DNA from: Malacoraja senta
Lineage: Eukaryota
Assembly (NCBI GenBank): GCA_038087875.1
Contig: CM075995.1
Location: 1,924,001-1,988,000 of the forward strand
Reading direction: 5' to 3'
Length of the DNA: 64,000 nucleotides
The notes under the pieces were generated by a model. It worked only from the letters and a program-made list of their open reading frames with translations, was not told the origin of the DNA and ran no database searches. Positions 1,098-61,939 of the stretch are shown in pieces (positions within the stretch are counted from its first letter, which is position 1; each line of letters starts with the position of its first letter). Made by a program: the position numbers and the translations under genes.

Positions 1098-1291
1098 TGT
1101 TCAAGACTGGAAAATCGAAGGTAGACAAAAATGCTGGAGAAACTCAGCGGGTGCGGCAGCATCTATGGAGCGAAGGAAATAGGCAACGTTTCGGGCCGAA
1201 GTCTGAAGAAGGGTTTCGGCCCGAAACGTTGCCTATTTCCTTCGCTCCATAGATGCTGCCGCACCCGCTGAGTTTCTCCAGCATTTTTGTC
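1098..1291. mobile_element. Young Penelope-like fold-back insert with hammerhead core, nested in an older Penelope-like 3' end
   Basis: Inverted arms around 1200; core CTGAAGA agggtttcggccc GAAACGTT at 1203-1230; TSD TACTGGAGTAACTCA at 1083-1097 and 1292-1306. Confidence 0.85.
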
Positions 1292-2191
1292 TACTGGAGT
1301 AACTCAGCAGGTCAGGCAGCATCTCTGGAGAAAATGGAAGTGACATTTCTGGTCGGGACCTGAAAATGGCACGATTCCATCCGCCTCAACCACCACCCTT
1401 GGCAGCCTGTTCCAGGCACTCATCACCCTGTGTGTAAGGGGAGAACGTACAAACTCTGTACATACGGCACCCGTAGTCAGGTTCGAACCCTGGTCTATGG
1501 CCCAGTACGGCAGCAACTCTACCGCTGTGCCATCGTGCTGCCCTAAATTGGATTCTTTAAATGAAGCTATCAACACAAATTCCCAGCTCTTTCCCCTTCA
1601 AATAATACTTCATTTTTGCAAATATTTATCTAATTCCATTTTATATCATGTTATATTTTACAGCCTAATACCCATTCCTGAAAAAAATCCATTATGTATC
1701 TCTTTGCACAGGAATTTTATGTTCTGTTACAGTCCTGTAGCCATTGAAGACAACTTCTCACATGGGGCAGTACAGTGGTGCAGCTGGTGGAGCTACTGCC
1801 TCACAGCGCCAGAAAGCCAGGGACCCGGATTCGATTCCAACCTCGGGCGCTGTCTGTGGAGTTAGCACGGTGATGCTGCCTGTCCCGCTGAGTTACTCCA
1901 GCTTTTGGTGTCTATCTACGGTTTAAACCAGCATCTGCAGTTCCTTCCTACACACTCCCTGTGAACGTGTTGGTTTCCTCCAGTGGCTCCAGTTTTCTCC
2001 CACATCCCATAGGCGTGCGGTTTTGTTGGTTCATCGGCCCTCTGTAAATTGGACTTTCTCTGTGAGGAGTGGACATGAAAGCGGAATAACATAGAACGGA
2101 TGTGAACGGGTGATCGATGTTCAATGGTTCTTTTGTTCAATGGTCGACATGGAATCGGTGGGCCGATGCGGCTGTTTCCATGCTGTATCTC

Positions 2192-2728
2192 CGGTTGCTC
2201 TGCGGCCTAACATCATGGAGCTGGCGTCCTTGCTCGAGACTGACTTTGAGCCCCACCGTGGGGCAGTTGCCTGGGATTGACACTCCAACCGTGGCCTGCG
2301 GATTTCAACATCGAGGAGCTCGCAGTCCCGGGTAGAGACTGATGTCAGGAAGCTCCAAAGTCGCAGAAGGTTCGACTAGCCCCGACCCGGGGTCCGATCG
2401 CCAGCGCAGGGAGCTGAGATCCCCCTGATGCGGGAGCTTGATTGCCCCGATGCGGAGGGCTCGACCGCCAGCTACGGGAGCCAAGATCATCCAGACAACG
2501 GAAGGCTCTAGACCCTCGACCGCGGGAGGACAAAGAAGGGAAGAGATTTAACTTTTATCGCCTTTCATCACAGTGAAGAATGTGGAGGAGTCAATGTGGT
2601 GGATGTTTATGTCAAAATGTATTTTGTGTGTTTTGTTGCTTTTTATTGGTATGACTGTATGGCAAATCAAATTCCTCCTATGTCACAAAAATATACTTGG
2701 GTAATAAAGTATGATTATGATTATTATG
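2192..2728 (+). mobile_element. CpG-rich non-autonomous retroposon (family A), inserted in a V-SINE tail
   Basis: Homologous to the reverse complement of 56211-56785; ends in aataaagt(atgatt)n; ATCTC duplicated at the flanks. Confidence 0.7.
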
Positions 2729-3194
2729 ATCTCTAAACCAAACAACGTCAAGCCTTTCAAACCCATTGAAAATTATTCGACCAAATAATTTTTTCTACTC
2801 ATTTTAATAAATCACAGTGAGTGTAATCCATTGACACATGGCCAGATCTTGAGAATTCAGATGGCAGCCCAGATTGCGGGTTGCCCTAGGTCCAAGAACT
2901 GTGCTTCCTCACCCTCACTCCTATGTGAAATGCACTAAGCTGATTATCATGCACAGATCGGGCTTGTTAGCAAAGAACATGGGAGTTCCAAACACTGAAA
3001 CAACACAGCGTGACGCTGTCCTTAAAGATGTCAAGATATTCAAAGCAATTGCAATTTGGGCAAAACAAATCCTCGTTTATCTGATTTTTTTTTAAATGAC
3101 AAAAAAAGTAACCGCAGATTATGAAATGGCGAGACATCAACTGAGGGAACACTTGAAAAGTTCAGTTATTTTCTTAAGAAGAGACCTCTTCATT

Positions 3195-3560
3195 AGAGCC
3201 TCCTCGTCCAGTCGCATCCTGGCCGCTCCCTTTTCTCCCCTCTACCATCGGGCAAAAGGTATAGAAGTGTGAAAACGCACACCTCCAGATTCAGTGACAA
3301 TTTCCTCCCAGCTGTTATCAGGCAACAGAATCATCCTACAACAGTTAGAGAGCAATCCTGAACTACTATCTACCTCATTGGAGGCCCTCGGACTACACTT
3401 GATCAGACTTTACTGGCTTTATCTTGCTTTATCATGTTTCACACTGTGAATGGCTCGATTGTAATCATGTATTGTCTTTCTGCTGACTGGTTAGCACGCA
3501 ACAAAAGCTTTTCACTTACCTCGGTACACGTGACAATAAACTAAACTAAAGTTACTAACT
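3195..3560 (+). mobile_element. Rex1/Babar-like LINE 3' end
   Basis: Encodes SHPGRSLFSPLPSGKRYRSVKTHTSRF..., followed by a 3' UTR ending cacgtgacaataaa(ctaaa)n; the same UTR recurs at 27810, 28200, 51845 and 59510. Confidence 0.75.
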
Positions 3561-3720
3561 AAACAAACTAACTAGAATACATGATGAACCGCAGGATGCT
3601 ATTTAACATGCTCAGCAACTGTGGATCATGAACAATAATGTATGTGTTGATTCCCAGGTCATATTACTTCCCTGAGATTTCCAGCCAGCAGCACACAAGA
3701 AACAACACTATACATAATCA

Positions 3721-3885
3721 GTGTAGGAAGGAACTGCAGATGCTGGTTTAAACCAAAGATATACACAAAAAAGCTAGAGAAACTCAGCGGGACAGGCAGC
3801 ATCTCTGGAGAGAAGGAATGGGTGACGTTTCGGGTCGAGATCTTTCTTCAGACTGGTTAGGGATAAGGGAAACGAGAGATATAGC
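3721..3885 (-). mobile_element. Older Penelope-like 3' end with hammerhead core
   Basis: tgtaggaaggaactgcagatgctgg...gacgtttcgggtcgagatctttcttcag; core at 3824-3851 on the minus strand. Confidence 0.75.
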
Positions 3886-4064
3886 AAGAGGCACCACAGA
3901 GGGGGGCAGCGAGAGAGGATGTTGCAGAACCCTCGTCGGAAAACTTCTTCAAAGTAGACAAAAGAATCACACAGCACAGTAAAAGGCCCTTCAGCACAAC
4001 TCTCCCATGCTGTCGAAGGTGGCCAATGCAAGCTAGTACAATTTCCCCACGTTTAACTCATTTA

Positions 4065-5012
4065 GAAATATTGAAAAATAGGCACAGGAGTAGGTCATTC
4101 GGCCCTTCGAGCCAGCACCGCCATTCACCGCTGATCATCTAAAATCAATACCCCGTTCCTGCTTTTTCCCCCATATCCTTTGATTCCTTTAGCCCAGAGC
4201 TAAATCCAACTCCCTCTTGAAAACATCCAGTGAATTGGGCTCCACTGCCTCTGTGACAGAGTATTCCACAGATTCACAACTCTCTGGGAGGCATGGTGGC
4301 GCAGCGGTAGTGTTGCTGCCTTACAGCGATTGCAGCGTCGGATACCCGAGTTAGATCCCCACTACGGGTGCTGTCCGTATGGAGTTTGTACGTTCTCCCC
4401 GTGACCGCGTGGGTTTTCTCTGAGATCTACAGTTTCCTCCCACACTCCAAAGACGTACAGGTATGTAGGTTAATTGCTTGGTAAATGTAAAAATTGTCCC
4501 TAGTGTGTGTGGGATAGTGTTATGTGCGGGGATCATTGGTCGGAGCAGACTCGATGGGCCGAAGGGCCGGTTTCCACGCTGTATCTCTAAACTAAAATGT
4601 TTTTCCTCATCTCAGTCCTAAATGGCCTACCCCTTATTCTTAAACTGTGACCATTTGGTTCTGGACTCCCCCAACATCGGGAACATTTTTCCTGCATCCA
4701 GTCTGTCCAATCCTTCAAGAATTTTATATGTTTCTATGAGATCTCCTCTCATCCTTCTAAATTCCAATGAATACAAGCCCAGTTGACCCATTCTTTCATC
4801 GTATGTCAGTCCCGCCATCCCAGGAATTAACTTGGTGAACTTACGCTGCACTCCCTCAATAGCAATAATGTCCTCCCTCAAATTAGGAGACCAAAATTGC
4901 ACACATTACTCCAGGTGCAGTCTCACCAGAGCCCTGTACATCTGCAGTAGGACCTCCTTGCTCCTAAACTCAAATCCTCTCGTAACGAAGGCCAAAATGC
5001 CATTAGCTTTCA
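4065..5012 (-). mobile_element. CR1/HER1-like LINE fragment interrupted by a V-SINE
   Basis: ORF 4627..4902 QFWSPNLREDIIAIEGVQRKFTKLIPGM...RRMRGDLIETYKIL; 3' UTR at 4065-4285. Confidence 0.9.
4290..4596 (+). mobile_element. tRNA-derived V-SINE (HE1-like)
   Basis: A-box tggcgcagcgg, degenerate B-box, V-domain gtttcctcccacactccaaagac, CR1-like tail gggccgaagggc..tttccacgctgtatctctaaactaaa. Confidence 0.85.
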
Positions 5013-5556
5013 TCTAAACTTTCCCTCTAAACTTACCTACTCATGTACCTGGCCAAATATTATATCAATGTTATTTTACCCACCTTAACTACTTCTTCTA
5101 GCAACTCAATCCAGAAACCCACCACCCTCTGTGTGGAAAACATTTACCCTCAGGTTCCTATTAAACCTTTTTCCCCTTTCACCTTAAATCTATGCCCTCT
5201 AGTTCTTGATTTCCCTACCTGGGAAAAAGACTCTGTGCATTCGCCCTATCTATTTCATTCATGATTGGATACACCTCTATAAGATCTCTGCTCAGCCTCC
5301 TGCGCTCCAAGGAATGAAGACTGAGTCTGACCAAGCTCTCGCTGTAATTCATGTTCTCGAATCATGGCAACATCTTTGTAAATCTTCTCCCCCTTCTTTC
5401 CAGGCCCAGTTATATGAAAACAAATGTGTTGGGTTTGGAAATCAGAATTTTGAACTGCTCTTGGAAAACTTGATAGAAAATCATTGCTGAAAGAAATCCC
5501 CTAAATCTGCAACATAGCATTGGTAAATCAATCATTTTCGTGTAAAACTGATCACA

Positions 5557-5850
5557 GGGGTGGAACGGTGGCGCAGCGGCAGAGTTGCTGCTTTCCAGCA
5601 CCAGAGACCCAGGATCGATCCTGACTACGGGTGCTGTCTGTACACAGATTGTACATGACCACGTGAGTTTTCTCTGGGTGCTTCAGTTTCCTCCCACACT
5701 CCAAAGATTTGCAGGTTAATTGGCTTCGGTAAAAATTGTAAATTATCCCTCGTGTGTCATGTGTGCTAGTGTACGGGGATCGCTGGTCAGCACAACTTGG
5801 TAGGCCGAAAAGCCTGCTTTTGCGCTGTATCCCTAAATAAAATAAACTAC
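5557..5850 (+). mobile_element. V-SINE (HE1-like)
   Basis: tRNA head, V-domain and tail as in other copies. Confidence 0.85.
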
Positions 5851-6264
5851 ACTAATTCCCTTGACACCGAGTAGTTTTGATTCAGTTCAGAATAAACGCT
5901 TTCCAAGCACTGTCATTCTTCGATAATCTCTCAAATTATTTAGATTTAAAATATTAGAGTGGGAAATTGTCTTTCTAGTATTGATATTGGCTTCTTATTG
6001 TCATGTGTACTGAGTAACATTGAAAACTTTGCGTCCTATCCAGTCAACTATCCAGTCTAACGAAGGGTCTCGACCCGAAACATCACCCATTTCTTCTATC
6101 CAAAGATGCTGCCTGACCCAGAGTTACTCCAGCATTTTATGTCTATCTTTGGTGTAAACGAGCATCTGCAGTTCCTTCCTACACAACTGATAGTCGAGTA
6201 TAATCACGTCATACACAAGTACAACAGCCAGTACAAAGAAAATAGCCAGTGGGCAAATATTGAG

Positions 6265-6960
6265 TCATTGAGTTGTACAGCACAGAAACAGGCCCTTCGG
6301 CCCAACTCACCCATGCCGACAAAGATGCCCCATCTGACCTCATCCCATTTGCCTGTGTTTGGCTCATATCCCTCTAAACCTTTCCTATCCAAGTATCAGT
6401 CCTTTAAATGTTGTTATAGTATCTGCCTATATCATCTGGAAACTCACTCCATGTGTCCACTACCCTCTCTAAGTAAAAACGTTGCCCGTCAGCTTCCTAT
6501 TATATCTTGCCACTCACACCTTAAACCTAAGTCCTCTGGTTCTGCATTCCCCACCCTGGGTAAAAGATACCCATGTGCATTCACCCATCTATTCAACTCA
6601 GAATTTCGCACACCTCTATAAGACCACCCCTTAGTCTTCTGCGCTCAAAGGAATTAAGTACTAGCTTGACCAATCTCTCCCTTTACTCCGGCCCTTGAGT
6701 CCTGGCAACATCCCCGTAAATCTTCTCTGCACTAGTTCCAGCTAATTGACATTCTTCCTACAGCAGAGAGACCAAAACTGAACACATTAAGAAGGGTCTC
6801 GACCCGAAACGTCGCCTATTTCCTTCGCTCCCTAGATGCTGCCTCACCCGCTGAGTTTCTCCAGCTTTTTTGTCTACCTACAATACTTCATTCAATGTCT
6901 TGTACAACTGTGGGACATGTTGGTCGGTGTGGGCAACTTGGGCCGAAGGGCCTGTTTCCA
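6265..6960 (-). mobile_element. CR1-like LINE 3' fragment containing a Penelope-like insert (about 6789-6879)
   Basis: aaacaggcccttcggcccaac tail and CR1 3' region; internal gaagggtctcgacccgaaacgtcgcctatttccttcgctcc. Confidence 0.75.
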
Positions 6961-7232
6961 TGCTGTATGTCTAAATGACAAGCCCTGGTTTGAATAATTT
7001 CTCCTCTTAATTTAATAAGAGTCGAGGCATCAGTATCTTAATCCTATGCTGCACTTGCACCTTAAACAATCTACCCGTCCAAAAACATGGAGCGCTAACA
7101 GATCCCCAGCTGCGGTTTAATCAGTTGGATGCCAACATTCTGTCAGCCTTATAATTTTTTTTCCGTTTATTCTCAAACATCCAGAGATATTAAGCCAAAG
7201 GACACAAAGTGCCAGAGTAACTCAGCAGGTTA

Positions 7233-7495
7233 AGGGCCTGTCCCACTGTACGAGGTAATTCAAGAGTTCTCCCGAGTTTCCCCTGATTCGAACTCAGAGA
7301 ATTACGGTAATATGTTGAAAAATCTTCATGAGCTTACCGCGTTTCCCGGGTAACTGCCGTTAGCGTTACAAGCCGCTAAGAGACATCCCAAGATCCAACG
7401 TACCCGCTACGTACATTCTACGTACTTAACACAAGTTTGATTTTTTTTAAACTCGGGAGAGCTCTTGAATTACCTCGTACGGTGGGACGGGCTCT
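7233..7495. mobile_element. PIF/Harbinger-type MITE
   Basis: Long imperfect TIR AGGGCCTGTCCCACTGTACGAGGTAATTCAAGAG / CTCTTGAATTACCTCGTACGGTGGGACGGGCTCT; flanks TTA/TTG; splits a Penelope-like fragment. Confidence 0.8.
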
Positions 7496-7709
7496 TTGGG
7501 CAGCATCTCCGGAGAACATGGAAAGGTGACATTACCACTGAGTTAAACTGACACTCTTTTGTGTAAACCAGCATCTCACTAGTATGTAAATTGCACTGAG
7601 GTGGAATAGAAGTTGCAGTAATACAGAATACTTTTTGCATAACTGCGCCAGAAAGGGAAAAGGTCAAACAATGTTCCCACTCATGCACTATAAATTGAGT
7701 ACATCAGTT

Positions 7710-8000
7710 AGGGCGGCACAGTGGTGCAGTGGTAGAACTGCTGCTTCACAGCACCAGAGGCACGGGTTCGATCCTGACTACGGTGTTGTCTGTGTGGTGT
7801 TCATATGTTCTCCCTTTGGCTGCATGTTTATTCACTGGGTGCTCCGGTTTCCTCCTTCTTTCCAAAGACGTGCAGATTTATAGATTCATTGCCCCTGATG
7901 TGTAGGATGCAACAGTAGGATAACATTTAATGATGATCGATGATCGGTGTGGACTCAGTGGGCCGAAGGGCTTGTTTCCACACTGTATCTCCAAACGGAA
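7710..8000 (+). mobile_element. V-SINE (HE1-like)
   Basis: gggcggcacagtggtgcagtgg...gggttcgatcc head and tail. Confidence 0.8.
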
Positions 8001-8814: not shown

Positions 8815-9125
8815 TTTAGTTTAGTTTCGTTTAGTTTAGAGATTCAGCGCTGAAACAGGCCTTTCGGCCCACCGAGTCCACGCCAACCAGCGGGTGATCC
8901 CTGTACACCAACACTATCTATCCTACACACACCAGGGACAATTTACAATTTTACCAAGTCAATTAGTGTACAGACCTGTGCGTCTTTGGAGTGTGGGAGG
9001 AAATCCGGGGAAAACCCACTCAGTTCACAGGGAGACCGTACAAACTCCGTACAGACAGCACCCATAGTTAGGATCGAACCCGGGTCTCTGGCGCCGCAAG
9101 GCATCAACTGTACCGCTGCTCCCTG
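8815..9125 (-). mobile_element. V-SINE (HE1-like)
   Basis: (tttag)n tail, tttggagtgtgggagg V-domain, ggatcgaacccggg B-box complement. Confidence 0.85.
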
Positions 9126-11361: not shown

Positions 11362-11528
11362 CTCAAGATGCTCTAAAATGTACGGAGGGTTCGTCATTCC
11401 AAGCCGCAGCATCGCTCCCTCGGGAATCACTTCCACCAGTTTCCAAAGCAATGTGGGAAGATCTGTCCCGATATCTCTTCCGTAAGCACCTGTGTCTTCA
11501 CTGGTCAGCCATATTTCACAGACACCTT
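11362..11528 (-). CDS. CDKAL1: Internal coding exon of CDKAL1 (threonylcarbamoyladenosine tRNA methylthiotransferase, radical SAM), 167 bp
   Basis: Translates to (E)[55 protein letters not shown], recognisable as the vertebrate CDKAL1 radical-SAM segment. On the minus strand the acceptor is ttgacatgttttttcctcatgcAG|AAGGT (phase 1) and the donor is CTTGAG|GTaagg (phase 0). Neighbouring exons were not found in the window. Confidence 0.95.
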
Positions 11529-15598: not shown

Positions 15599-15603
15599 CT
15601 TGT

Positions 15604-19420: not shown

Positions 19421-20975
19421 CTGTGTCGGAAGGAACTACAGATGCTGCTTTATACCGAAGTTAGACACAAAATGCTGGAGTAACTCAGCGGTTCAGGCAG
19501 CACCTCCGGAGAAAAGGAATAGGCCCCCATTCCTTCATCAAACTATGGACGTTCAGTCGTGCTACACCTCCAACCCCCACCAGGAAGGTTTTAAGTATAG
19601 GGCGGCGCGACCGACGTTCGCAGCGGCCTCTGCAGTCCGTCCGGCTTTTTTTTTATTTTTGTCCCGTTGAATGAATAGTTTGTTGTGGTTTTTATATTGT
19701 TTTTAGCTGTGTATATGGGGGGCAGGGGGGGGGGGGACTTTTAAATCTCTTCCCTGTACGGGGGACCGATCTTTTCCCTGTCGGGGGTACACAAAAATGC
19801 TGGAGAAACTTTTCCCTGTCGGGTCTCCGTTGTCATTGGGGCCTAGCACCGTGGAGCGGTCTCCAACCGGAACGACCTGGGAGCTCCAGTTGCGGAGTAT
19901 GCAGACTTACCATCGTGGGGCTGGCTGACTTCGGAGCGTGGAGAGCTGTGGTGGCGCGCGGCTGCGACCCGACTCCGGAGCTCGGAGGCTCCAGCCGCAG
20001 GTCCGGTGGACGGTGACATCGGGAGCTCGCGGGTCCCTGGTGGGAGACCGCTTCTCCCGCCTGAGTTGCGGGGTTGAAAATGACCCGGAGCGGGACCTTA
20101 CATCGCCCAGCGCGGCTTTAACGGCCGCGGGACTTGCCATCGCCCGCCGGGGGCTCCAACATCAAGACCCGGAGCGGGGCCTTACATCACCCAGCGCGGC
20201 CTTAACGGCCGCGGGACTTGCCATCGCCCGCCAGGGGCTTTAACATCGGGAGAAGAATGGAACACAGGGGAGAGACAAGACTTTGCCTTCCATCACAGTG
20301 AGGAGGAGATTCACTGTGAAGGATGTTTGTGTAAATTGTGTTGGTTGTGTGTCTTGGTTCTTTTCTTGTTGTATGACTGCAGAAACCAAATTTCGTATGA
20401 ACTTCATACTTGAGGTTCAAATGACAATAAATAAATTGTATAATTGTATAATTAAGGCCCTCCATTTCTTCCTTGATCGCAGACCCAGCCAATTTCTCTC
20501 ATCAAACACTCTCCACCGCCTAGCAGAACTGGTCCTCACCCTTAACAGCTTCTTCTTCAACTCCTCCCACTTCCTACAGGTCAATGGGCACTCGCATGGT
20601 CCCCAGATATGCCTTTTTATTGAGTATGTCAAACAGTCCCTGTTCCAGGTGTACACTGGCCTTATCCCCCAACTCTATCTCCACCACATTGACGACTGCA
20701 TCGGGGCTACCTCCTGCACCCATGCAGAACTCATGGACTTTATGAACTTCACCACAAACTTCCACCCTGTCTTCAAATTCACCTGGACTATCTTGGACAC
20801 CCCCCTTCCCTTTCTTGATCTCACCGACTCCATCACAGGAGATAGACTATCGACTGACCTCTATTACAAACCTGACTTTGAGCCTGAAGAAGGTTTCCGA
20901 CCCGAAACGTCACCTATTCCTTTTCTCCACAGATGCTGCCTGACCCGCTTGAGTTACTCCAGCACTTTTTATCTA
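19421..20975 (+). mobile_element. Degenerate Penelope-like element with an RT fragment, fold-back ends and a nested CpG-rich retroposon
   Basis: Degenerate MDVQS..TS.PHQEG motif at 19540-19595 continues after the insert as KALHFFLDRRP..LAELVLTLNSFFFN..HIDDCIG..LPFLDL..TDLYYKP (20453-20875); hammerhead core at 20884-20911; inverted long end at 19421-19523. Confidence 0.8.
19597..20450 (+). mobile_element. CpG-rich non-autonomous retroposon (family C) with an internal 84-bp tandem duplication
   Basis: Splits the Penelope RT frame; unit gacccggagcggg... at 20082 and 20166; tail gacaataaataa(attgtata)n. Confidence 0.7.
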
Positions 20976-23894: not shown

Positions 23895-24122
23895 TACTGA
23901 TTGTATGCCTCGTTGTCACCTTCCCCTCAGCTAACAATGTACTATTCCACATTTCCATATTCATTGTCCCCTTTGATCTCTGTCACCCTTCCATATCTTT
24001 ATGTCTCCATCGTCCCTGACTCTCAGACTGAAGAAGGGTCTCGACCTGAAATGTCACCCATTCCTTCTCTCCAGAGATGCTGCCTGTCCTGCTGAGTTAC
24101 TCCAGCATTTTGTGTCTATCTA
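23895..24122 (+). mobile_element. Older Penelope-like 3' UTR with hammerhead core
   Basis: ctgaagaagggtctcgacctgaaatgtc at 24028, followed by the conserved ...ctccagcattttgtgtctatc end. Confidence 0.7.
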
Positions 24123-28350: not shown

Positions 28351-29049
28351 ATTTTGAATAACTGTTCTTAAATATGTAGGATATAATGAGAATAGATGCA
28401 AAATGCTGGAGTAACTCAGTGGGACAGGCAGAATCGCTGGAGAGAAGGAATGGGTGACGTTTCGGGTCGAGACCCTTCTTCAGGTTATAATGAGATTTGT
28501 AGGGTCTGTAGAAACGTTCATGTATTAACCACTACTCAAACAAATGGTTAAGAACAGATTGCCATATATTGCTCATTGTATACAGCGTTGGCTCTGTTTA
28601 CACAACTGGCATTTAGCCACAGTAATTATGATCTGTAACTGCGGCAATCAGCTCAAGACTGCGACAGGGTCAAATCTGATCTACAGTGCTCTTATCCAAA
28701 ACTGCTCAAGTCATCAAATTAACCTATTGGTAGCTGAACACCAGCCAAGCATAGACAGGCATTAGAATAAGAATGGTTTAAAAAAAAAGGTTTCTAGGAC
28801 TGGGACCAGCAATATTTAACAAATGAGATGAAATAGAGTCAAAGAGTCATGGACTTGACCTCTTGGCACTAATACAGTTGCAGACAATCACTGTATAAAT
28901 TATCATATGGGACAATGAAACAGGACCTACAAAAAAATGGAAACAGAATTAAATCAGTTATATTGACAATGTTAATTTTGTCTTATATCCAAAAAGGATA
29001 ATCTGATAAGAGCTTAATGGAAGCTCTATTTGTAATACTTATTACTAGA

Positions 29050-29550: not shown

Positions 29551-31967
29551 CGTATTTTCACTTTCAGCTTTTAGAAATCTTTATAGAAGCTCTATTGTCA
29601 ATACTTATTATTGGTTTCAAATAATGGAACTTTATTCTTAATCTGCATAACATAGCATTTATAGAGGCATTAATGTTTTCTATAAATGCTATTTTATGCT
29701 GATTAAACAGCTCTCTACATTTAAAGATGTGATAATTTTGGAATAAAGTTAGATTCCATTATTTTAAACCAACAAGTATTATAAATAGAGCTTCTATATA
29801 GATTTCTGAAAGCTGAATTTGAAAATACGAGTCCAACATAGCAGAATAACATGGATAGATACAAAATGCTGGTGTAACTCAGTGGATTAGGCAACGTCTC
29901 TGGAGAAAAACACTAGGTGACGTTTCGGGTCAGAAGCCTTCTTCAGACTAACCTCCTCCATCACTGACAACAGATAGTCATAGAGTGATACAGTGTGGAA
30001 ACAGGCCCTTCAGCCCAACTTACCCACAACGGCCAACATGTCCCAGCCACACTAGTCCCACCTGCCTGCGCTTGGTACATATCCAAACTTGCCTTATCCT
30101 TGTACCTGTCTAACTGTTTCTTAAACATTGGGATATTCCCCGTCTCAACAACCGCTTTTGGCAGCTTGTTCCATACACCCATCACTCTTTATGTGAAAAT
30201 GTACACTTTTTACCAAACATCATGTCCCTTCCCCCAATTACATGATGACGGGAACAGAATTAGCTTCATTGACCACAATAAACGCACAGTGTAAATCTGA
30301 AATAAAAGCAAAAAAATACTGAAGCTACTCAACAGGCCAGGGAGAATCAGACTGACTACCTTTCATTAGAGCTGGAAAAGTGAGAGCTGTTGACACAAGT
30401 AACTGCATGTGCTGGTTTATAAAAAAAAAGATGCAAAAGTGCTGGAGTAACTCAGCGAGTCAGGCAGCATCTCAGGAGACCATAGATAGATGACATTATG
30501 GGTTAGGACCTTCTTCACACCTGACCCGAAAAAGCATATATCCATACTTTTATGTCTATTTTTGCTGGAGTAACTCAGCGGGTCAGGCAACATCTCTGAA
30601 GGACATGGATAGGTGACGTTTCAGGTTGGGGCTCTTCTTCAGACACCAATGTGTCTGAAGAAGAGTTTTGACCTGCAACGACGCCTCTCCATGCCTTCCA
30701 GAAATATTGCCTAACATGCTGAGTAGCTCCAGTACTTGCCGTTTCTTTTGGAAAACTGGGAAAACGAGTATTTAACTTTGGGAGAAGGAGAGTCTGTAAA
30801 TGATCTAGAACAAGAGAATCCTGATGAAACCAACATCTAAGAGAGAAAGCTGACCTGCTGGAGAAGGGTAAATGATGGAAGAATACAGGATAAACTCACC
30901 ATACATAGATCAGTATGGGTGTCAGGGGTTATGGGGAGAAGGCAGGAGAATGGGGTTGTGAGGGAAAGGTAGATCAGCCATGATTGAATGGCGGAGTAAA
31001 CGATGGGCCAAATGGCTTAATTCTGCTTCTACAACTTATGAATTTATGAGGCAAACAGTCCTGCAGTTACGAGTTGCAGAACTTGTTTGTTGGCTGGAAA
31101 CCTGAAGCAAGAGAGAATAAGACAAGCCAAGCAGATCTGTGGAGAGAGAAGATAGACACAAAATGCTGGAGTAACTCAGTGGGACAGGCAGCATCTCTGG
31201 AGATAAGGAATGGATGACGTTTCGGGTCGTGACCCTTCTTCAGAATGGACGCGTTGGGCTGAAAGGCCTGTTTCCGTGCTGTATGACTCTTTCACCTTCT
31301 GCCCACAATTGCTCGTGCCCTTGCCCTTGCCAATGCATGCTGAACTTGTCCATTTCGTCTGGTGTGCACAACCTAAAGTTGTTGGACAACTTGTTCTATT
31401 TGATCTTCCGTTTGTGCACGTCGAGTTGATTGCATTAGTCGAAACAGGGCGGACCACGTGAAGGTTGCAATCTTCCACCCCAAATCTAGGTCACGACACA
31501 ACCTCCCTACAGATGTTCAGCATTAGTTTCACCCTCAACAATAACAATTTGACAAGTTAAAATTTGGAATCTACATCAGTGAACCATGTTTATTGGAAGC
31601 CTATTTACAAAAGGAGTTTGACCTTCAGGTGGAATCCTTCAAGCTTATTTCAAAGTTTTTTTTCCCTCCTGAACAAAGTGCATGCCATTTAGTCCATTGA
31701 TCATCCATCCGTTGAAAAATAAACAAGAGTACTTTTTTTTTAATTGACACATCACATTCTTAAAAGATGGCAGATAAAATACAGTAATCTGAACTGTTTG
31801 AAGAGACTGGACCACAAGATTTTTCTGATTTTAAATTGAAAGTATATTAAATTATGATATGTTATGATATTATGAAATATTAATTTCTCCAACATTAAGC
31901 TTTAAATTTAAATACGTTTGACTAAAATCAAACACCTTAATACCAAGAAAACGGCAGATGGTCTAGA

Positions 31968-33775: not shown

Positions 33776-33975
33776 NNNNNNNNNNNNNNNNNNNNNNNNN
33801 NNNNNNNNNNNNNNNNNNNNNNNNNNNNNNNNNNNNNNNNNNNNNNNNNNNNNNNNNNNNNNNNNNNNNNNNNNNNNNNNNNNNNNNNNNNNNNNNNNNN
33901 NNNNNNNNNNNNNNNNNNNNNNNNNNNNNNNNNNNNNNNNNNNNNNNNNNNNNNNNNNNNNNNNNNNNNNNNNNN
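33776..33975. other. Assembly gap (200 N) within G/C-rich low-complexity repeats
   Basis: Run of N; the flanks share ctcaccatcccccccccc and gtagaggcagcacct.cccaggtcatagagca. Confidence 0.98.
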
Positions 33976-36884: not shown

Positions 36885-37120
36885 AGGACACCTAGTGCTG
36901 GAGCAACTCAGCAGGTCAGGCAGCATCTCTGGAGAAAAGGAATAGGTGACGTTTCAGGTCGAGATCCTTCATCAGACGTCATCAATTGAGTCTGATAAAG
37001 GGTCTCGACCCGAAATATCACTAATTCCTTCTCTCCAGAGATGCTACCTGATCTGCTGAATTACTCCAGCATTTGTGTCTATCTTTGGTGTAAACTAGTA
37101 TTTGCTCTTCTTCTTACACA
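36885..37120. mobile_element. Older Penelope-like fold-back insert
   Basis: Inverted arms around 36985; core CTGATGA..GAAACGTC on the minus strand at 36948-36975. Confidence 0.75.
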
Positions 37121-39492
37121 TGGTTAGGTGCTGGACCTGCTGAGTTTCACCAGCACTTTCTGTCCAAATATTAACATTGTCCCTCATTTTGGAAAGCATA
37201 ATTTCAGACCTCACTTTACAAGAACGTCTTAACATTTGTGCTAGCTTCACTGAGGCAGCTTTACTAAAAACTCAGATTGGCTATGAAGGGCTATTACAGT
37301 ATATGCCAGCGAACAATTCCTAATAACTCATTTTAAGTACTTGAAAGTGTCAGGTGCAAAGCAAGCAAAATGCTTTATGAGAACAAAATCCTGAAAATCA
37401 CAGACAACTTACAATACTCATTGCTCACCGATGATAGAAGTGATTTAACTGTTTAATGAGTTACTACGCATATCACATTTATTTTTCATAGTTTTAACCT
37501 CTTCCTCTCAGCTGAATTCATGGAACCAAACCACACACTCTCCTGCAATATCGACAATAAGATGCATTGTTGTTCAAACATGTTTGTCAGCCTTGCATTG
37601 AAATCCCCAGTTATTTTGTGCTTTTGGACTTAACGGATAAAAACACAAATTAAGAAACCCACCTTATTAAATGGAAAATATTAGTCAACATTTATTTCAA
37701 AAAACAAAAATGCCAGCACCAGAGAAATTGTGGGAATTCAATTTTTAAAAAATAAATGCAAATAATAGCATTTACTTGTTCATGTTTCAAATGTCCTTTT
37801 GAAAAGCTCAATAGGGACAAATGAAAAAGGCAGATTAAATTAAACTCAGTCACAGATCCAGTGAATTATTAATGGCATTTGGCAGTGAAGACGTTTTTAT
37901 TTAGTAAAACTCCTCTACAGTCTGAATCTGATCGTGAATAGAAAGCACTGAACAATTAAAATAGCAACCAGTCACTTTTGAACAGAATCAGCAACCAAGG
38001 AAATAATAAGAATCCTGTAGATAGACACAAAAAAGCAGGAGTAACTAAGTGGGCAGGCAGCAACTCTTGAGAGATGAATGGGTGACGTTTCGGGTCGAGG
38101 TCCTTCTTCAGACTGGTTAGGGATAAGGGAAACGAGTAATATAGACGGTGATGTGGAGAGATAAAGAACAATGAATGAAAGATATGCAAAAAAGTAACAA
38201 TGATAATGGAAACAGGCCTTTGTTAGCTGTTTGTAGGGTGAAAATGAGAAGCTTAGTGCAACTTGGGTGGGGGAGGGATAGAGAGAGAGGGAATGTCAGG
38301 GCTACCTGAAGTGAGAGAAATCAATATTCATACCACTGGGCTGTAAGCTGCTCAAGCAAAATATGAGATGATGTTCCTCCAGTTTGTATTTAGCCTCACT
38401 CTGACAATGGAGGAGACCTGGGACAGAAAGGTCTGTGTAGGAATAGGAAGGAGAGTTAAAGTGTCCAGCAACCAGGAGATCAGTGTTAAAGAAGGAACTG
38501 CAGATGCTGGAAAATCGAAGGTACACAAAAATGCTGGAGAAACCAGCGGGTGCAGCAGCATCTATGGAGCGAAGGAAATAGGTAACGTTTCGGGCCGAAA
38601 CCCTTCTTCAGACTGATAGGGGGTGGGGAGAAGAAAGGAAAAAAGGAAAAGGCGGAGGAGGAGCCCGAGGGCTGGGGGAGGGGAGGAGACAACAGATGGC
38701 TGATGAAGGGGAGGGGACAGCCAGGGCTAGCAGAATTGGGAGAATTCAACGTTCAGGCCACCAGGATGTAGACTGCCCAAGCGGAATATGAGGTGCATTT
38801 CCTCCAATTTACGGTGTTGCTCGCTGTGGCCATGGAGGAGACCCAGGACAGAGAGGTCAGATACGGAATGGGAGGGGGGAGTTGAAGTGCTGAGCCACCG
38901 GGAGTTCAGGTTGGTTATTGCGGACGGACCGGAGGTGTTCGGCGAAACGATCGCCAAGCCTCCGCTTGGTCTCACCGATGTAGATCAGCTGGCATCTAGA
39001 GCAGCGGAATGCAATAGATGAGGTTGGAGGAGATGCAGGTGAACCTCTGTCGCACCTGGAACGACTGCTTGGGTCCTGGAATGGAGTGGAGGGGGGAAGT
39101 GAAGGGACAAGTGTTGCATCTCTTGCGGTTGCAAGGGAAGTACCAGGGGAGGGGGTGGTATGGGAGGGAAGGGAAGAATTGACAAGGGAGTTACGGAGGG
39201 AGCGGTCTTTGCGGAAGGCAGACATAGGGGGAGATGGGAAGATGTGGCGAGTGGTGGGGTCACGTTGGAGGTGGCGAAACTGACGGAGGATCACTTGTTG
39301 TATGTGACGGCTGGTGGGGTGAAAGGTGAGGACTAGGGGGACTCTGCCTTTGTTGTGAGTGGGGGGATGGGGAGAGAGAGCAGTGTTGCGGGGTATGGCA
39401 GAGACCCTGGTGCGAGCCTCATCTATGGTGGAGGAGGGGAACCCCCGTTCCCTGAAGAATGAGGACATTTCAGATGCCCTGGACATTTCAGA

Positions 39493-40344
39493 TACACTTC
39501 TTCCCACCCTGCTTCCTGTAAGGACTCCATCCCCCACTCCCAATTCCTCCGTCTACGCCGCATCTGCTCCCAGGATGAGGCGTTCCACACCAGGGCATCT
39601 GAAATGTCCTCATTCTTCAGGGAACGGGGGTTCCCCTCCTCCACCATAGATGAGGCTCGCACCAGGGTCTCTGCCATACCCCGCAACACTGCTCTCTCTC
39701 CCCATCCCCCCACTCACAACAAAGGCAGAGTCCCCCTAGTCCTCACCTTTCACCCCACCAGCCGTCACATACAACAAGTGATCCTCCGTCAGTTTCGCCA
39801 CCTCCAACGTGACCCCACCACTCGCCACATCTTCCCATCTCCCCCTATGTCTGCCTTCCGCAAAGACCGCTCCCTCCGTAACTCCCTTGTCAATTCTTCC
39901 CTTCCCTCCCATACCACCCCCTCCCCTGGTACTTTCCCTTGCAACCGCAAGAGATGCAACACTTGTCCCTTCACTTCCCCCCTCCACTCCATTCCAGGAC
40001 CCAAGCAGTCGTTCCAGGTGCGACAGAGGTTCACCTGCATCTCCTCCAACCTCATCTATTGCATTCGCTGCTCTAGATGCCAGCTGATCTACATCGGTGA
40101 GACCAAGCGGAGGCTTGGCGATCGTTTCGCCGAACACCTCCGGTCGGTCCGCAATAACCAACCTGAACTCCCGGTGGCTCAGCACTTCAACTCCCCCTCC
40201 CATTCCGTATCTGACCTCTCTGTCCTGGGTCTCCTCCATGGCCACAGCGAGCAACACCGTAAATTGGAGGAAATGCACCTCATATTCCGCTTGGGCAGTC
40301 TACATCCTGGTGGCCTGAACGTTGAATTCTCCCAATTCTGCTAG
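39493..40344 (+). CDS. 5'-truncated Penelope-like ORF: RT thumb, Cys-rich linker and GIY-YIG endonuclease
   Basis: Open frame YTSSHPASCKDSIPHSQFLRLRRICS...FPCNRKRCNTC...NLIYCIRCSRCQLIYIGETKRRLGDRFAEH...VAQHFN...GLNVEF*. The C-x4-C-x2-C linker is characteristic of Neptune-group PLEs. No RT core or 5' start is present. Confidence 0.88.
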   Translation, partial: YTSSHPASCKDSIPHSQFLRLRRICSQDEAFHTRASEMSSFFRERGFPSSTIDEARTRVSAIPRNTALSPHPPTHNKGRVPLVLTFHPTSRHIQQVILRQFRHLQRDPTTRHIFPSPPMSAFRKDRSLRNSLVNSSLPSHTTPSPGTFPCNRKRCNTCPFTSPLHSIPGPKQSFQVRQRFTCISSNLIYCIRCSRCQLIYIGETKRRLGDRFAEHLRSVRNNQPELPVAQHFNSPSHSVSDLSVLGLLHGHSEQHRKLEEMHLIFRLGSLHPGGLNVEFSQFC

Positions 40345-40460
40345 CCCTGGCTGTCCCCTCCCCTTCATCAGCCATCTGGTTGTCTCCTCCCCTCCCCCAG
40401 CCCTCGGGCTCCTCCTCCGCCTTTTCCTTTTTTCCTTTCTTCTCCCCACCCCCTATCAGT

Positions 40461-40488
40461 CTGAAGAAGGGTTTCGGCCCGAAACGTT
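40461..40488 (+). ncRNA. Minimal type-I hammerhead ribozyme motif in the Penelope-like 3' UTR (mirror copy at 38584-38611, minus strand)
   Basis: CTGAAGA-A-GGGT(TTCG)GCCC-GAAA-CG-TT: catalytic core, stem II with a UUCG loop, and palindromic ACGT in place of stem III. Confidence 0.7.
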
Positions 40489-41214
40489 ACCTATTTCCTT
40501 CGCTCCATAGATGCTGCTGCACCCGCTGAGTTTCTCCAGCATTTTTGTGTAACCAGGAGATCAGGTTGGTTCACACGGGCTGAGTGAAGGTGTTCCGCGA
40601 ACCGATCGCCCAGTCTGCGTTTGGTTTCGCCGATGTGTGAGTCCACATCTTGAACAAACGGATACAGTGGATGAGGTTGGAGGAGGTGCAAGTGAACCTC
40701 TGCGTAACCTGAAAGGACTGTCGGGGTCCCTGGACAGAGTCGAGGGAGGAGGTATAGGGACAGGTGTTGCATCTTCTGCAGTTGCAGGGGAAGGTACCTG
40801 GGAAGGGGGTGGTTTTGGGGGGCAGGGATGTGTTAACCAGGGAGATGCGGAGGGAACGGTCTCTGCAGAAATCGGAAAGGGGTGGAGATGGGAAAATGTG
40901 GCTGGTGGTGGGATCCCGTTCGAAGTGGCGAAAATTTCAGAGGATTATGCGTTGTATACGACGTCTGATGGGGTGGAAGGTAAGGACAAGGGGGACTCTG
41001 TCTCTGTTGCGACTAGGGGGAGGGGGAGCAAGGGCGGAACAGCGAGGTACCGAGGAGACACGAGTGAGGGCCTCATCTATGACGGGAGAGGGGAACCCCG
41101 GTTCACTAATGAATGAGGACATCTCGGTTGTTCTAGTACTGTGCCTCTCACTCCATTCACACCAAATGCTGTGAATTCTTTTCAATGTTGATTGGCAAAA
41201 TACTTATAGTGTTG

Positions 41215-45415: not shown

Positions 45416-45957
45416 ACCTTCTGCATCGTGGATTTATGACCTTTTCAATACAGTACGATGCATTTTGCCAAATCACATCACTTTTATTTTCATTTTGTTT
45501 ATTACCTTCATTCAAGTAGCACTCACTGTTACATGAACTCCACATTGGCAGTAGATTTTGGATAAATCAGAAGTCAGGCAGTGAACCTTAATTCCATGTG
45601 TATAAAGGAACTGCAGATGCTGTTATAAACCGAAGATAGACACAAAAGTTCTGGAGTGACTCAGCGGGTCAGGCAGTATCTCCGGAGAAAAAGGATCGTG
45701 ACATTTTGGGTCAGGTCCCTTCTTCTGGCCCTTCTTGGGTCTGAAGATGGGTCTCGCCTGAAATGTCACCCATCCTTTTTCTCCAGAGATGCTGCCTGAC
45801 CTGCTGAGTTATTCCGGCACTTTGTGTCAACCTTAATCCCATGGTGGGGAAAATTTTGGAGAACATTACAAGGAACTGGACTTATGTATAATTGGAAAGG
45901 CAAGGACTGATTAGAGATACAGCGTGGGCTTTGTGACAGTGAAATCTTGTCCCACAA

Positions 45958-49325: not shown

Positions 49326-50437
49326 AAAACAGTATTCATAAGATCAGCCCTGATATTAGTTTGGAAGACATGCGCCAATTTTAATGGGCTTCAAACAATT
49401 ATGCACACACACACACATATTTTGCACTTAACAACCAGTAACAGTCTACAACTGCAGATGCTGGTTTAAACCGAAGATATACACAAAAAGCTGGAGTAAC
49501 TCAATAAGAGATTCTGCCTGTTCCGCTGAGTTACTCCAGCTTTTTGTGTCTATCTACAGTCTACAATTGGCTGGATGTTTGAGATAAGGATTCAAAGCCA
49601 ATATTTTTAGGCCAAGATATGCTGCAGATAGACACAAAAAGCTGGAGTAACTCAGCAGGACAGGCAGCATCTCTGGAGAGAAGGAATGGGTGACGTTTCA
49701 GATCGAGGCCCTTCTTCAGACTGAGGGATATTCTGCTTCAACTTGAGTTCAGCTTGAGGGAATTTCATATTTCCTGGTTCTTCATGTAATTCTTGTTCCA
49801 CAAATATTATTAGAGAATCGAAGAATGTAACATGATGCTTACAAGGATTAATTCTCTTGAAGCATATTGTATGTGCCTTTAGCAGTTAGGACTCAGTTTC
49901 TTCACACCAGTGGCATTTATCTTAATTGACACCATTTATGCATGTGGAATTTTAACTAGTAGTCTGCAAAGACACTTTTAATACATTAGATGGAATTGAT
50001 TTTTCCCTGGGTCTAATTCAAACATTAGAACCAGGTTAAAATCGGCCAGAGCAAAGCGGAATTATATTTATTTAGTAATTATATTTAGTAATATAATAAT
50101 AATAATAATAATAGATTTTATTTATATAGCGCTTTTCAGGACTCAAAGTCGCTTTACAATTGAGAGTCAGGAATAAACAAAACAAAATAGAGCAGTAAGA
50201 CACAGGAGCCATCCGATCATAGCTGATCAATTTTTCCCTCTCAACCCCATTCTCCTGCCTTCTCCACGTAAACTTTGATGTCCTTAAAAAAAATTAAAAA
50301 ATCAATATTTATTTTTAAAATTGGATCAGGAAAGCAGCCAAAGTTGAGGAATACAAAGGTTATTAGGTAAAGGGAAACTAAGATGTCCAAGCATTGTCAA
50401 CCCTTGCTCCTTAAGCACAATCGGTTTGAAGCCTGTT

Positions 50438-54151: not shown

Positions 54152-54849
54152 GGGAAGAATTAGAATGTTCACTGTAGTCAATGGGGCCTTGTTAGTATCT
54201 TCTTCCTTTTAGTAATGTTATTTACAAAACTTAGTCAGATGTGACACAAATTAAAAAAAAGGCCTCACTACTGTCACTGAATTACTGCATTTTCATACAA
54301 GCTATAATTTTTTTTTTAAAGAGCAGTTTTCCTGTTCTAAAACAGTAGAGGTTATAACAGTATTGTAAAACAAATATTTCAAACCAATAAATCTACATGC
54401 ATTCGATACATCACCCACTTGTTTTCATAAGTTGTGATATAATAAAGTAATATCCGTTCACTAAAAACAGTTCTCTTTGTGTGACAATATTCGCCGGTAA
54501 GGTACACCAGCACCTCTAAGAAGTTAAAAGCTAGATTTTCACATATTTAGGATTTGTTATATTACAGAATGATTATTGAAGTTTAATAAATAAAAAGTAT
54601 TAACTAAATTAGGCAGGCAGTCCCTTAAACAGCTTTGATGTGTAGGAAGGAACTGCAGATGCTGGTTTATAGATAAAGTCTGAAGAAGGTTTCCAACCTG
54701 AAACGTCACCTATTCCTTTCCTCCAGTGATGCTGCCTGACACGCTGAATTACTCCAGCATTTTGTGTCTATCTTCTTTAAACAGTTTAAGCAGCTTGTAG
54801 GACGATGATCCACCATGGGCATGAACAGCAAGGAACGATATGTTAACCA

Positions 54850-58849: not shown

Positions 58850-59059
58850 TAGATATACACAAAATGCTGGAGTGACTCAGCAGGACAGGCAGCCTGAAGA
58901 AGGGTCTCGACCCGAAACGTCCTCAGTCTGAAGAATGGGTCTCGACCCGAAACGTCACCCATTCCTTCTCTCCAGAGATGCTGCCTGTCCTGCTGAGATA
59001 CTCCAGCATTTTGTGTCTATCTTCGGTTTAAACCAGCATCTGCAGTTCCTTCCTACACA
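58850..59059. mobile_element. Older Penelope-like fold-back insert with two tandem hammerhead cores
   Basis: Cores at 58894-58921 and 58928-58956; flanked by a duplicated tttctatagt. Confidence 0.8.
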
Positions 59060-59509
59060 TTTCTATAGTATGTTGCTTTGTGATCCCCACATCAATTTGA
59101 ATGTTTGCTGTCTATAAACAGCGATTCTGCTCTCTGGTTATTCTCAAGTGCATTTTGACTGCAGCTCCAGATATCTTGTTTTTTCATTTCCCACCTCAGA
59201 CCCATTCGTTCTGCCCCTCAGTCATATTTACTTTCAGTTCTGGTACTGTGCTCAAGTGAATCTTGCATTGTTGATTTTCCCAGGGGATAACACCACCATT
59301 TCCTTCTGATGCTCATTCTCTGTGGACCTCTTCAAGGCAATTTTCACTCTCTCCAAGCAAGCAGCAAGAAGTTCCTTTTGCCATATTACTTACGTCTGCA
59401 CCAAATTAACTCTTCGATCCTGGCCCAAAGATGCCCTATTACTTCGATATATTTTTGCACCCTCAGATCAATGTCCTGTTAGTGCAATATGATCTTTCAA
59501 TAATTTTGT

Positions 59510-60200
59510 TTAGTTTATTGTCATGTGGACCATGGTTCAGTGAAAAGCTTTTGTTGCGTGCTAACCAGTCAGTATAAAGACTATACATGATTACAATCGG
59601 GCTGTCCACAGTATACAGATACATGGTAAAGGGAATAACGTTTAGTGCAAGATGATGTCCAGTAAAGTCGGTTTAAAGATAGTCCGAGGGTCTCCAATGA
59701 GGTAGATGGTAGCTCACGACTGCTCTCTAGTTGTTGATAGGATGGTTCAGTTGCCTGATAACAACTGGGAAGAAACTGTCTCTGAATCTGGAGGTGTGCG
59801 TTTTCATACTTCTGTACCTATTGCCTAATGGGAGCTGGTGGCCTTGTCAAAGCAGTGTGAAGTATAAATGGGGTCAATAGAAGGGAGGTTGGTTTGTGTG
59901 ATGGTCTGTGTTATGTTCACTATTCTCTGCAATTTCCTACAGTTTTAGATGGTTCCCAAACCAAGCTGTGATGCATCCCGATAAAATGCTTTCCGTGGCG
60001 CACTTTCCGTAGAAGTTGGTGAGAGTTGTAGGGTGGACAAAAGTGCTGGAGAAACTCAGCGGGTGCAGCAGCGTCTCTGGAGCGAGGGAAATAGGCAACG
60101 TTTCGGGCCGAAACCCTTCTTCAGACTCAGAGAGTTGTAGGGGATGTGCCAAACTTACTAAGCCTTCTAAGAAAATCGAGGCATTGCTGTGTTTTCTTGG
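59510..60200 (-). mobile_element. Rex1/Babar-like LINE fragment with a nested young Penelope-like insert (60034-60129)
   Basis: TTLTNFYGKCATESILSGCITAWFGN motif; insert flanked by the 13-bp TSD GAGAGTTGTAGGG; hammerhead core at 60097-60124 (minus). Confidence 0.8.
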
Positions 60201-60856
60201 CCATTACTTCAGTATTTACATTTAACCTGCAAGCAAACTCAATGCCAAAAGAAAATAAATCAGTACAACAAAAAGTTAGTACACCGTAGGTTATTTTTCA
60301 TAAAACAAAATGTCAGCAGAGAGGAGAGATAAAACCTAAAGGTCATAAACATAAGATAGACACAAAAAACTGAAGTAACTCAGCAGGTCCGACAGCATTT
60401 CTGGAGAAAAGGAATAGGTGACGTTTTAGGTCGAGACCTTTCTTCAGAACATAAGACAAACTGATCAATCCAATGGGTACTTCAGAAACAATTCCACTAC
60501 CTAGAGATTAGATTTGAAAAACGCTACCAGAGAGAACAGATGAGGTAAATAGAATAGATGTTTTACCAGGAATCTAGATAGATATTTGATGATGATGTAA
60601 ATATGTTAAGAGTAAAAAGATTGGGAAGAAACCAATTGAAGTGCATGTTTTTCCCGAAACAACTGGCTGACACTTACGTAAAGTTTAAAATGTATAAATT
60701 TAGCGAATAAATACCACTTAAAAATCTCGACCACCACAATATTCAGAGTGAATATAGGCCTTTACTACTGTCCAACACAGTCAATTATACATTTTAAGAC
60801 ATCTGTATATAACATGACTTGCATATTAAATTCCTGCTCTGAAATGGCAGTCTTTC

Positions 60857-61155
60857 TTTAGTTTAGTTTATTTAGCGATACAGCTTGGACACAGGCCCTT
60901 CGTCCACCTAGTCCATTCCGACCATCGATCACCCATTCCCACCAGTTCCATGTTATCCCACTTTCACATCCAACCCCCTACGCACCTGGGTCAATTAACC
61001 TACAAACCCGCACGTCTTTGGGATGTGAAAGGAAACTGGAGCACCCAGTGGAAACTTAGGTGGTCACAGGGAGAACGTGCAAACTCCACACAGACAGCAG
61101 CCAAGGTCAGGATCAAACCCGGGTCTCTGGCGCTGTGAGGCAGCAACTCTACCGG
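60857..61155 (-). mobile_element. V-SINE (HE1-like)
   Basis: Reverse-complement consensus. Confidence 0.8.
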
Positions 61156-61939
61156 ATGTTCCACTGTGGTGCTGCCAGTCGCACACGTTCTCGCTGGTTC
61201 TTTAGGCGTAGGAATTAACTCCTCAAGCAACATAAGATGCAACTTTTATTTTGCAACATGCTGAACTAATTACATAGCTTGCGACAGGTTTTGAATGAGT
61301 GCAAACGTTATCACGTTCTGTTTATTCATTATTGTCTAACCTGTTATTCTGCTACAAGGTTTCAAGTAATTTGCATGCACCAAGCTACAAATTAAACATT
61401 GCACTAAACATCAAAAAGGTTCACAGAACTTCACGTAAGAAGAAATCTGTTACTACTGTGTAGAAAGGAACTGCAGATGCTGGTATATACAAAAGATAGA
61501 TACAAAGTGTTGGAGTAACTCAGTGGGTCAGGCAGCATCTCTGGAGAAAAGGAATAGGTGACGTTTCAGGTCGAGACCCTTCCTCAGTTTAGTCTCCAGA
61601 GATGCTGCCTGACCCGCTGAGTTAGTTCAGCACATTGTGCCTATCTCCTGTTGCTACTTGGAAGGTTGACAGTGGGTGAAATTAAGGAAGTCAGCACAGT
61701 ATTTATATTCTACTTGACTAGCAAGCAAGTTCCACTTTCAGAAGTACATCAGGTACATTTTGGGGCACCACAGTTGTTAGACTAGTAATCCAAAGGCTTG
61801 AACAATCCGTGGATGGCAGTTGAAATCTCATTATTGCAAAGGTGGATCTTCAAATCTACCTCGTTCCGGACCTTGGACTTTTCCCTCTGGAACAGTAACA
61901 CTACTCTGCCGCAAAACTATTTCTCCTTGTTAACCTCTC

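Follow-up and report, generated by a model that had tools for sequence, protein, structure and literature searches.

In this study, the hammerhead motifs of a 64,000-nt stretch of Malacoraja senta DNA (assembly GCA_038087875.1, contig CM075995.1, positions 1,924,001 to 1,988,000; hereafter the window) were analyzed together with the CDKAL1-type gene in which they lie. With high probability, the motifs are minimal hammerheads that Neptune-type Penelope-like elements (PLEs) carry in their terminal repeats, present as short intronic insertions that are likely inert in host RNA. The motif is the already published minimal PLE hammerhead and is ordinary in a genome full of such copies.

All 17 motifs listed in an earlier reading of the letters alone (the sequence-only reading) were present in the sequence (17/17). 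Its plus-strand positions denote C3, and its minus-strand positions denote the low end of the 28-nt motif, with C3 27 higher (3824 corresponds to 3851). Two further cores were found, 24028 and 45741 (+), in which the palindrome ACGT has become ATGT. The window held 19 cores, compared with a mean of 0.18 (maximum 2) across 200 dinucleotide shuffles. A hidden Markov model search found 60 fragments of the hammerhead-bearing repeat family, and the motifs were PLE terminal-repeat stubs of about 95–135 bp. The core showed CUGANGA-H ... GAAA-palindrome-UH and G10.1-C11.1, and helix III was absent. Helix I was 2 bp in the source sequence and 0–1 bp in 6/19 window copies, against a published range of 2–6 bp for minimal hammerheads. 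Rfam covariance models did not recover the motifs: the hammerhead models gave no match up to E 10, and the 51 matches of the window scan up to that value included no hammerhead family, being only hairpin-type matches that came from fold-backs.

Dispersal by PLEs, as proposed in the sequence-only reading for minimal type-I hammerheads, was borne out, since a GIY-YIG frame precedes motif 40461 and long copies carry paired hammerheads. A single young PLE insertion of 2.07 kb was located at 38483..40549, with a 14-nt target-site duplication and 99% identity to other copies; copies elsewhere in the genome were 99–100% identical. It is composed of an inverted arm (38483-39482, −) and a 5'-truncated copy (39493-40551, +), and its host site is an older PLE (38289-38483 and 40552-41185). 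The C-terminal part of the open reading frame (ORF), a C-x4-C-x2-C linker and a GIY-YIG endonuclease, lies at 39493..40344 (+). An intact young hammerhead (40461..40488, +) lies 117 nt downstream of the ORF stop and is preceded by a polypyrimidine tract and by TCAGT. Its complement in the inverted arm (38584..38611, −) is also intact and is sense to the gene. The older core type was likewise found behind PLE coding sequence, on the same strand in 5/30 loci. At 20421..20873 (+), a decayed PLE reverse-transcriptase (RT) fragment with 60% amino-acid identity to the young element is joined directly to motif 20884 (20884..20911, +; stem II 3 bp, helix I absent).

Among the long copies fetched from elsewhere in the genome, five of seven carried two hammerheads 3,918–4,000 nt apart. 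Three had an open frame of 1,224–1,250 codons, and the intact ORF was 1,238 amino acids long. The ORF started about 165 nt after C3 and contained YIDD and YIGET motifs; its domain scores (RVT_1 E 6e-6 and GIY-YIG E 7e-4) were both just under the Pfam cut-offs. The anatomy of the element was hammerhead, 5' leader, RT/GIY-YIG ORF and hammerhead, and hammerheads were found in both pseudo-long terminal repeats (pLTRs) of the RT/GIY-YIG element at L080-L084. Traits of endonuclease-containing (EN+) PLEs were observed: a single ORF with RT and C-terminal GIY-YIG, partial tandems, an inverted 5' copy and an optional 30–40-nt tail. PMC8557442 describes a CX2-5CxxC linker between RT and endonuclease as a mark of Neptune that is common to Nematis. 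By its C-x4-C-x2-C linker, the element is classified as a young Neptune-type PLE. In the young PLE ORF at L082 3130-6843, the N-terminal third holds a long proline/serine-rich insert with 78-nt repeats.

The remaining window cores were single or inverted, not head-to-tail, apart from one close tandem. On the plus strand, a young-family hammerhead (GGGT-TTCG-GCCC) at 1203..1230 lies within a fold-back insertion (1113-1294), and the two decayed cores occupy 24028..24055 and 45741..45767, the latter in a fold-back with 45597-45731. The motif at 54680..54707 has a 3-bp stem II. The close tandem, 58894..58956, consists of two cores 34 nt apart (58894 and 58928), the first without helix I, and is antisense to the gene. 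On the minus strand, stem II is 2 bp at 3824..3851 (older family, sense, in the intron downstream of the exon), 30615..30642 (fold-back with 30648-30751) and 38084..38111. It is 3 bp at 29919..29946, 36948..36975 (fold-back with 36984-37106) and 49692..49719. A 4-bp stem II was seen at 31216..31243, with helix I of 1 bp, and at 61560..61587, with one G-U pair, the 5' strand of helix I missing and a fold-back with 61593-61661. An exact older-family core (28456..28483) in a stub at 28392-28483 has a 10-nt target-site duplication and also lacks the 5' strand of helix I. The intact young hammerhead at 60097..60124, in a stub (60032-60127) with a 13-nt target-site duplication, is the best candidate among the sense copies. 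About 680 kb of sequence contained 337 tail matches; the 298 copies whose tail was near-complete were analyzed, and 92 of these showed a fold-back (window examples 42679-42864 and 1113-1294). Many young-family fold-back junctions lay at a GTTTCGG/CCGAAAC palindrome. Fold-back insertions would give long double-stranded RNA in pre-mRNA.

The motif was compared with known systems, each as described in the publications cited. It resembles the minimal PLE hammerhead (PMC4209133) in CUGANGA with an extra base, G10.1-C11.1, GAAA-CG-UH and the lack of helix III, as well as in its presence in both terminal repeats and in thousands of dispersed single copies. It differs in that helix II is 4 bp and helix I is only U-A plus G-C. 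Exact cores of the two families numbered 17,539 + 19,784 = 37,323 genome-wide (reversed-pattern control 0), whereas 4,000–9,000 motifs were reported for coelacanth and Xenopus (PMC4209133). No cartilaginous fish appears in the alignment of that publication. Non-LTR retrozymes (PMC7229834; bioRxiv 10.64898/2026.07.22.740005) have their likeness in tandem arrays of pLTR-derived units elsewhere in the genome; in contrast, window copies are single or inverted, and the core is missing from two arrays. Units that repeat head to tail and each contain a whole hammerhead were absent from the window, where 58894/58928 is the sole close pair, and were found at loci such as L300-L312. In domesticated intronic ribozymes (CPEB3; ultraconserved amniote intronic hammerheads), too, the motif lies within a large intron on the sense strand. 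Each of those is one conserved locus that can work as a monomer, whereas the motifs here are multicopy, decaying and without helix III. Judged by its sequence and location, the motif fits the minimal PLE hammerhead and fails features of a domesticated intronic ribozyme.

The inserted copies showed decay. Stem II had been read as structurally constrained because the two families keep it paired with different sequence. The families differ by one U-A to U-G change, and in an alignment of 17/19 motifs (two with indels excluded) 0/6 pairs had changed on both sides, with a covariation score of 0.171, below the shuffle mean of 0.216; the constraint was not supported. G12 was A in 44/169 older-family copies, against 50/337 at non-core CpG Gs. 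Genome-wide single variants were G12>A 4,467, C11.1>T 3,733 and loop G>A 1,993. Loss of G12 as selection against active cores was considered and rejected. CpG decay is enough for this loss, since the partner C of the same CpG is lost almost as often. The core has thus decayed by CpG loss after insertion. Intronic DNA totaling 186 kb held 50 copies in sense and 43 in antisense orientation, with intact cores in 18/50 and 14/43, so that sense copies were neither depleted nor less intact. From the G12 frequencies, the genome-wide variants, the lack of strand bias and the lack of compensatory change, no selection on the copies is indicated; neither strand bias nor a kept core, as expected for a domesticated ribozyme under selection, was found. 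A multicopy repeat (L405-L407, L410, L412-L414, L417, L419 and L435) holds a captured young hammerhead stub with mutated G12, followed by a CT-rich run. The captured stub is amplified there as a passenger.

The 5' ends of the copies were examined with C3 as 0, the predicted cut leaving +28 as the first base. Among the first 93 consecutive exact young cores on contig C1, 46/93 started within 12 nt upstream of C3, 4 at 13–60 nt and 43 beyond 100 nt. The 3' ends of the 50 non-long young copies clustered at two positions relative to C3, about +93 and +130 (34 at +90..+104 and 15 at +120..+135). A flanking duplication of at least 9 nt, with chance not controlled, was seen in 21/34 non-fold-back short young copies. 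In a tail-anchored sample of 73 copies, the 5' limit was at −6..+1 in 20/73 and at +8..+12 in 12. The sequence (T/C)CAGT after a pyrimidine tract was kept in all subfamilies despite differing upstream sequence, and TCAGT resembles the initiator consensus. These features tip the balance slightly toward an RNA 5' end set by transcription initiation at the conserved TCAGT that immediately precedes the core; a start there would also explain the 2-bp helix I. An internal TATA-less promoter is described for Penelope (PMC2377424). The element protein would begin reverse transcription at +93 or +130 and would often run off the RNA 5' end, most templates being uncut. The alternative is that TCAGT after the pyrimidine tract is a 3' splice site, as for the splice acceptor in D. 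virilis. A cap-copied G at −4 was not claimed: old copies were non-C in 6/9 (p 0.009), and the young set had no clear excess (G 6/34). At two loci (L316 and L331), a piece ending at +280..+283 was joined through a run of A back to −3/−4, a layout suggestive of tandem copying of short oligoadenylated transcripts. In the Anolis Poseidon element PAc (PMC11167929), there are likewise two 3' end points 30–40 nt apart, and insertions come mostly from uncut RNA. The element here differs in its Neptune-type linker and 1,238-amino-acid ORF, and in its 5'-end pile-up at the hammerhead edge and tentative cut-site excess, whereas the Anolis study found no RNA ends there.

A second, weaker signal was found at the predicted cut site. 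Starts were estimated from pattern counts, with the first 30 loci of each pattern classified. About 200 copies started at +28, compared with about 60–70 for +29 and +30; the net number for +27 was close to zero. The +28 excess ratio was 3.0 (95% 1.2–7.5), or 2.3 (1.2–4.3) with fold-backs. An 11-unit array of period 138 (L289-L299, G000:C1:27817319-27818779) has units from exactly +28 to +165 without the core, and a second array of period 165 (L319, G000:C1:381271255-381271857) has coreless units from +27/28 to +192. Two of the 11 jump-back junctions readable by eye were at the cut site (p about 0.003, assuming a uniform distribution over a range that was set post hoc). The 5'-end excess and the two arrays joined there are tentatively read as a fossil record of cleavage in vivo. 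Other arrays (L300-L312, L315, L317 and L318) contain an intact young hammerhead in each unit of 254–384 nt, with boundaries of their own per array; by their layout these are natural dimer substrates, retrozyme-like. In the element's own transcripts, the hammerhead would occasionally cut after GUU/GUC, leaving 1–2% of young copies starting at the cut site. The chances that such occasional cutting takes place, likely as a dimer and with help of the element protein, are about evenly balanced. Retrozymes are described as using RtcB-type ligation to join hammerhead ends (PMC7229834), and ligation of this type could make circles behind such arrays. In PMC4209133, PMC8557442 and PMC11167929, PLE hammerhead cutting in vivo and its purpose are called unclear. 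In searches of the open literature, which do not extend to subscription papers, no title or abstract opening concerned pile-ups of 5' ends or footprints at the cut site among PLE copies; absence from print is not shown.

The strongest competing explanation is that the motif has entirely lost its cutting activity in this lineage and that source elements retain it as a promoter element, a splice signal or a protein-binding site. The initiator-like TCAGT start, with ACGT about 30 nt downstream, would then be what is conserved, and the cut-site excess would come from microhomology. Microhomology was indeed present at several +28 junctions. Helix I, which consists of a U-A and a G-C pair, ranks among the weaker ones in the published alignment (PMC4209133, supplement). 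Even when folded in minimal context, the hammerhead falls 4–9 kcal/mol short of the best local fold, and the Anolis study (PMC11167929) found no RNA ends at the site. However, both families keep all catalytic nucleotides, the extra base after A9, G10.1-C11.1 and the palindrome despite differing upstream sequences. Two of the 11 jump-back junctions fall at the cut site, and net 5' ends one base upstream, at +27, are about zero. This explanation is considered unlikely.

The short copies might also be a separate non-autonomous SINE-like or retrozyme-like element (SINE, short interspersed element) that starts at the hammerhead and is mobilized by the PLE protein. Half of the young copies start at one narrow site, many have flanking duplications, and tandem arrays of 138–384-nt units exist. 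However, the short copies share subfamily marks and 3' ends with long PLE copies, and their 5' edge is spread over about 7 nt. The unit boundaries are particular to each array, hence no array is a family. A separate element is improbable, and the short copies are read as stubs of the PLE itself.

The host gene was identified from a coding exon (EGVCEIW...ILEHLE) at 11362..11528 (−), which has AG/GT ends and matches TIGR01578 with E 1.9e-21. We take the gene to be CDKAL1 from this family match and the human exon. Three upstream exons were found in order on the same strand. The placement of the copies inside a CDKAL1-type gene in the sequence-only reading was confirmed, and minus-strand copies are sense because all four exons are on the minus strand. 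Ten of the 11 sense cores lie within one intron of about 81 kb, which holds a 200-N assembly gap (33776..33975). No next CDKAL1 exon was found within 230 kb downstream, and a PDB search with the exon gave no match. Further CDKAL1-type exon matches, at G000:C19 1333253 and 2569159, were out of order or on the opposite strand, and scaffold C19 has 200-N gaps every 50–150 kb. The gene may be mis-scaffolded. Its extent is uncertain, since the next exon was not found and the other matches were out of order.

The sequence-only reading had further proposed that sense copies pair in cis and cut the pre-mRNA co-transcriptionally, and the data did not favor this. A 4-bp stem II was present in 5/11 sense copies, and two of those five (2/11) also had a 2-bp helix I, the maximum seen in sense copies. 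In a ±130 nt (260-nt) context, the hammerhead-compatible fold was 5.8–46 kcal/mol above the ensemble in 11/11 sense copies. The ACGU dimer interface amounts to about −3 kcal/mol, and an antisense family copy lies 6–2,165 nt from the sense copies; copy 38611 is opposite its own perfect inverted arm of 970 nt. G12 decays freely, and the one tandem with closely spaced cores, 58894/58928, runs antisense to the gene. The pair 60124/61587, 1,463 nt apart, could form a 2-bp helix I across copies, and this one case is not dismissed. Pairing of the core with the downstream pyrimidine tract as a selected off switch was rejected, shuffled tracts pairing as well (19–75% of shuffles). In published work, the minimal hammerhead monomer showed no cleavage and dimers or multimers weak cleavage (PMC4209133), the Anolis PLE hammerhead was cleaved only with PLE protein and was dispensable for insertion (PMC11167929), and 8/9 tested Xenopus tandem dimers were uncleaved (bioRxiv 10.64898/2026.07.22.740005). 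Any cutting of CDKAL1 pre-mRNA by lone intronic copies is very probably too slight to matter. Acceptor-like sequences (pyrimidine tract and YAG) flank the hammerhead on both sides (window 40430-40460 and 40489-40510). Sense copies 3851, 38111 and 38611 keep the upstream one, which might serve as a cryptic splice acceptor.

The weakest rival, that sense copies, either by pairing in cis via their ACGU palindromes or after germ-line folding by PLE protein, cut CDKAL1 pre-mRNA as it is transcribed and tune its output in the manner of the CPEB3 intronic ribozyme, is very improbable: the 11 sense cores (six of them 500–700 nt or less from another), a local core density above the genome average, the tentative signs that the family's hammerhead can cut in vivo and the precedent of an intronic ribozyme affecting its own mRNA (PMC10919898) are set against the absence of strand bias over 186 kb, the broken stem II or helix I in close sense pairs, the competition of antisense copies with the weak interface, the uncleaved Xenopus dimers and the core-poor right flank of known introns.

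Several observations count against the interpretation of the motifs as unselected PLE stubs that are inert in host RNA and bear traces of a transcription start and of occasional cutting. TCAGT behind a pyrimidine tract also fits a 3' splice site. The junction of the 138-period array has a 4-nt microhomology one base off, the +28 excess is 2.0 (95% 0.55–5.4) once 5 doubtful junctions are dropped, and no cut-site excess is visible in the 73-copy tail-anchored sample (2 at +28). Equilibrium folding takes no account of folding order during transcription or of help from protein. Within the 81-kb intron by itself, the raw counts of intact cores lean toward the sense strand (14/31 sense and 6/24 antisense), and harmless cutting is compatible with a lack of strand bias. 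Exact cores are denser in the window than in the genome at large, 6 being present where 1.23 would be expected (p 0.0017). A similar density holds for the left flank (18 in 220 kb); the right flank, part of which is known intron sequence of the gene, has few (2 in 200 kb). In 170 older-family copies, non-CpG core positions departed from the family majority in 58/1,581 = 3.7%, against 512/7,428 = 6.9% in the tail. Conservation of the core above neighboring sequence, which the sequence-only reading had looked to, is therefore present as a difference, but as evidence for constraint it is confounded by source-element variation and alignment bias. We read the lower core divergence as selection on source elements plus alignment bias, the two not separated.

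Other repeats were found in the window. Abundant copies at 4294-4531, 24638-24963, 63035-63251 and other positions are presumably tRNA-like SINEs; ARAGORN found no tRNA gene. Those at 44651-45406 and 61789-62411 are presumably RT tail fragments of long interspersed elements. A nested promoter in GC-rich stretches of the window was rejected, as those stretches are repeats.

Taken by itself, cutting in living cells by the hammerhead of this recently active PLE is about as likely as not. It is highly doubtful that, in addition, PLE protein, when made, folds intact intronic copies such as 60124 and 61587; if true, a transposon protein would nick host pre-mRNAs, that of CDKAL1 included, at thousands of sites. 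With more than 17,000 near-identical young copies, insertion start points are a readable record of RNA ends, which shows a strong edge immediately upstream of the core and a second, weaker one at the predicted cut site. A complete count of these start points could explain genomes filled with 100–135-bp hammerhead-headed stubs.

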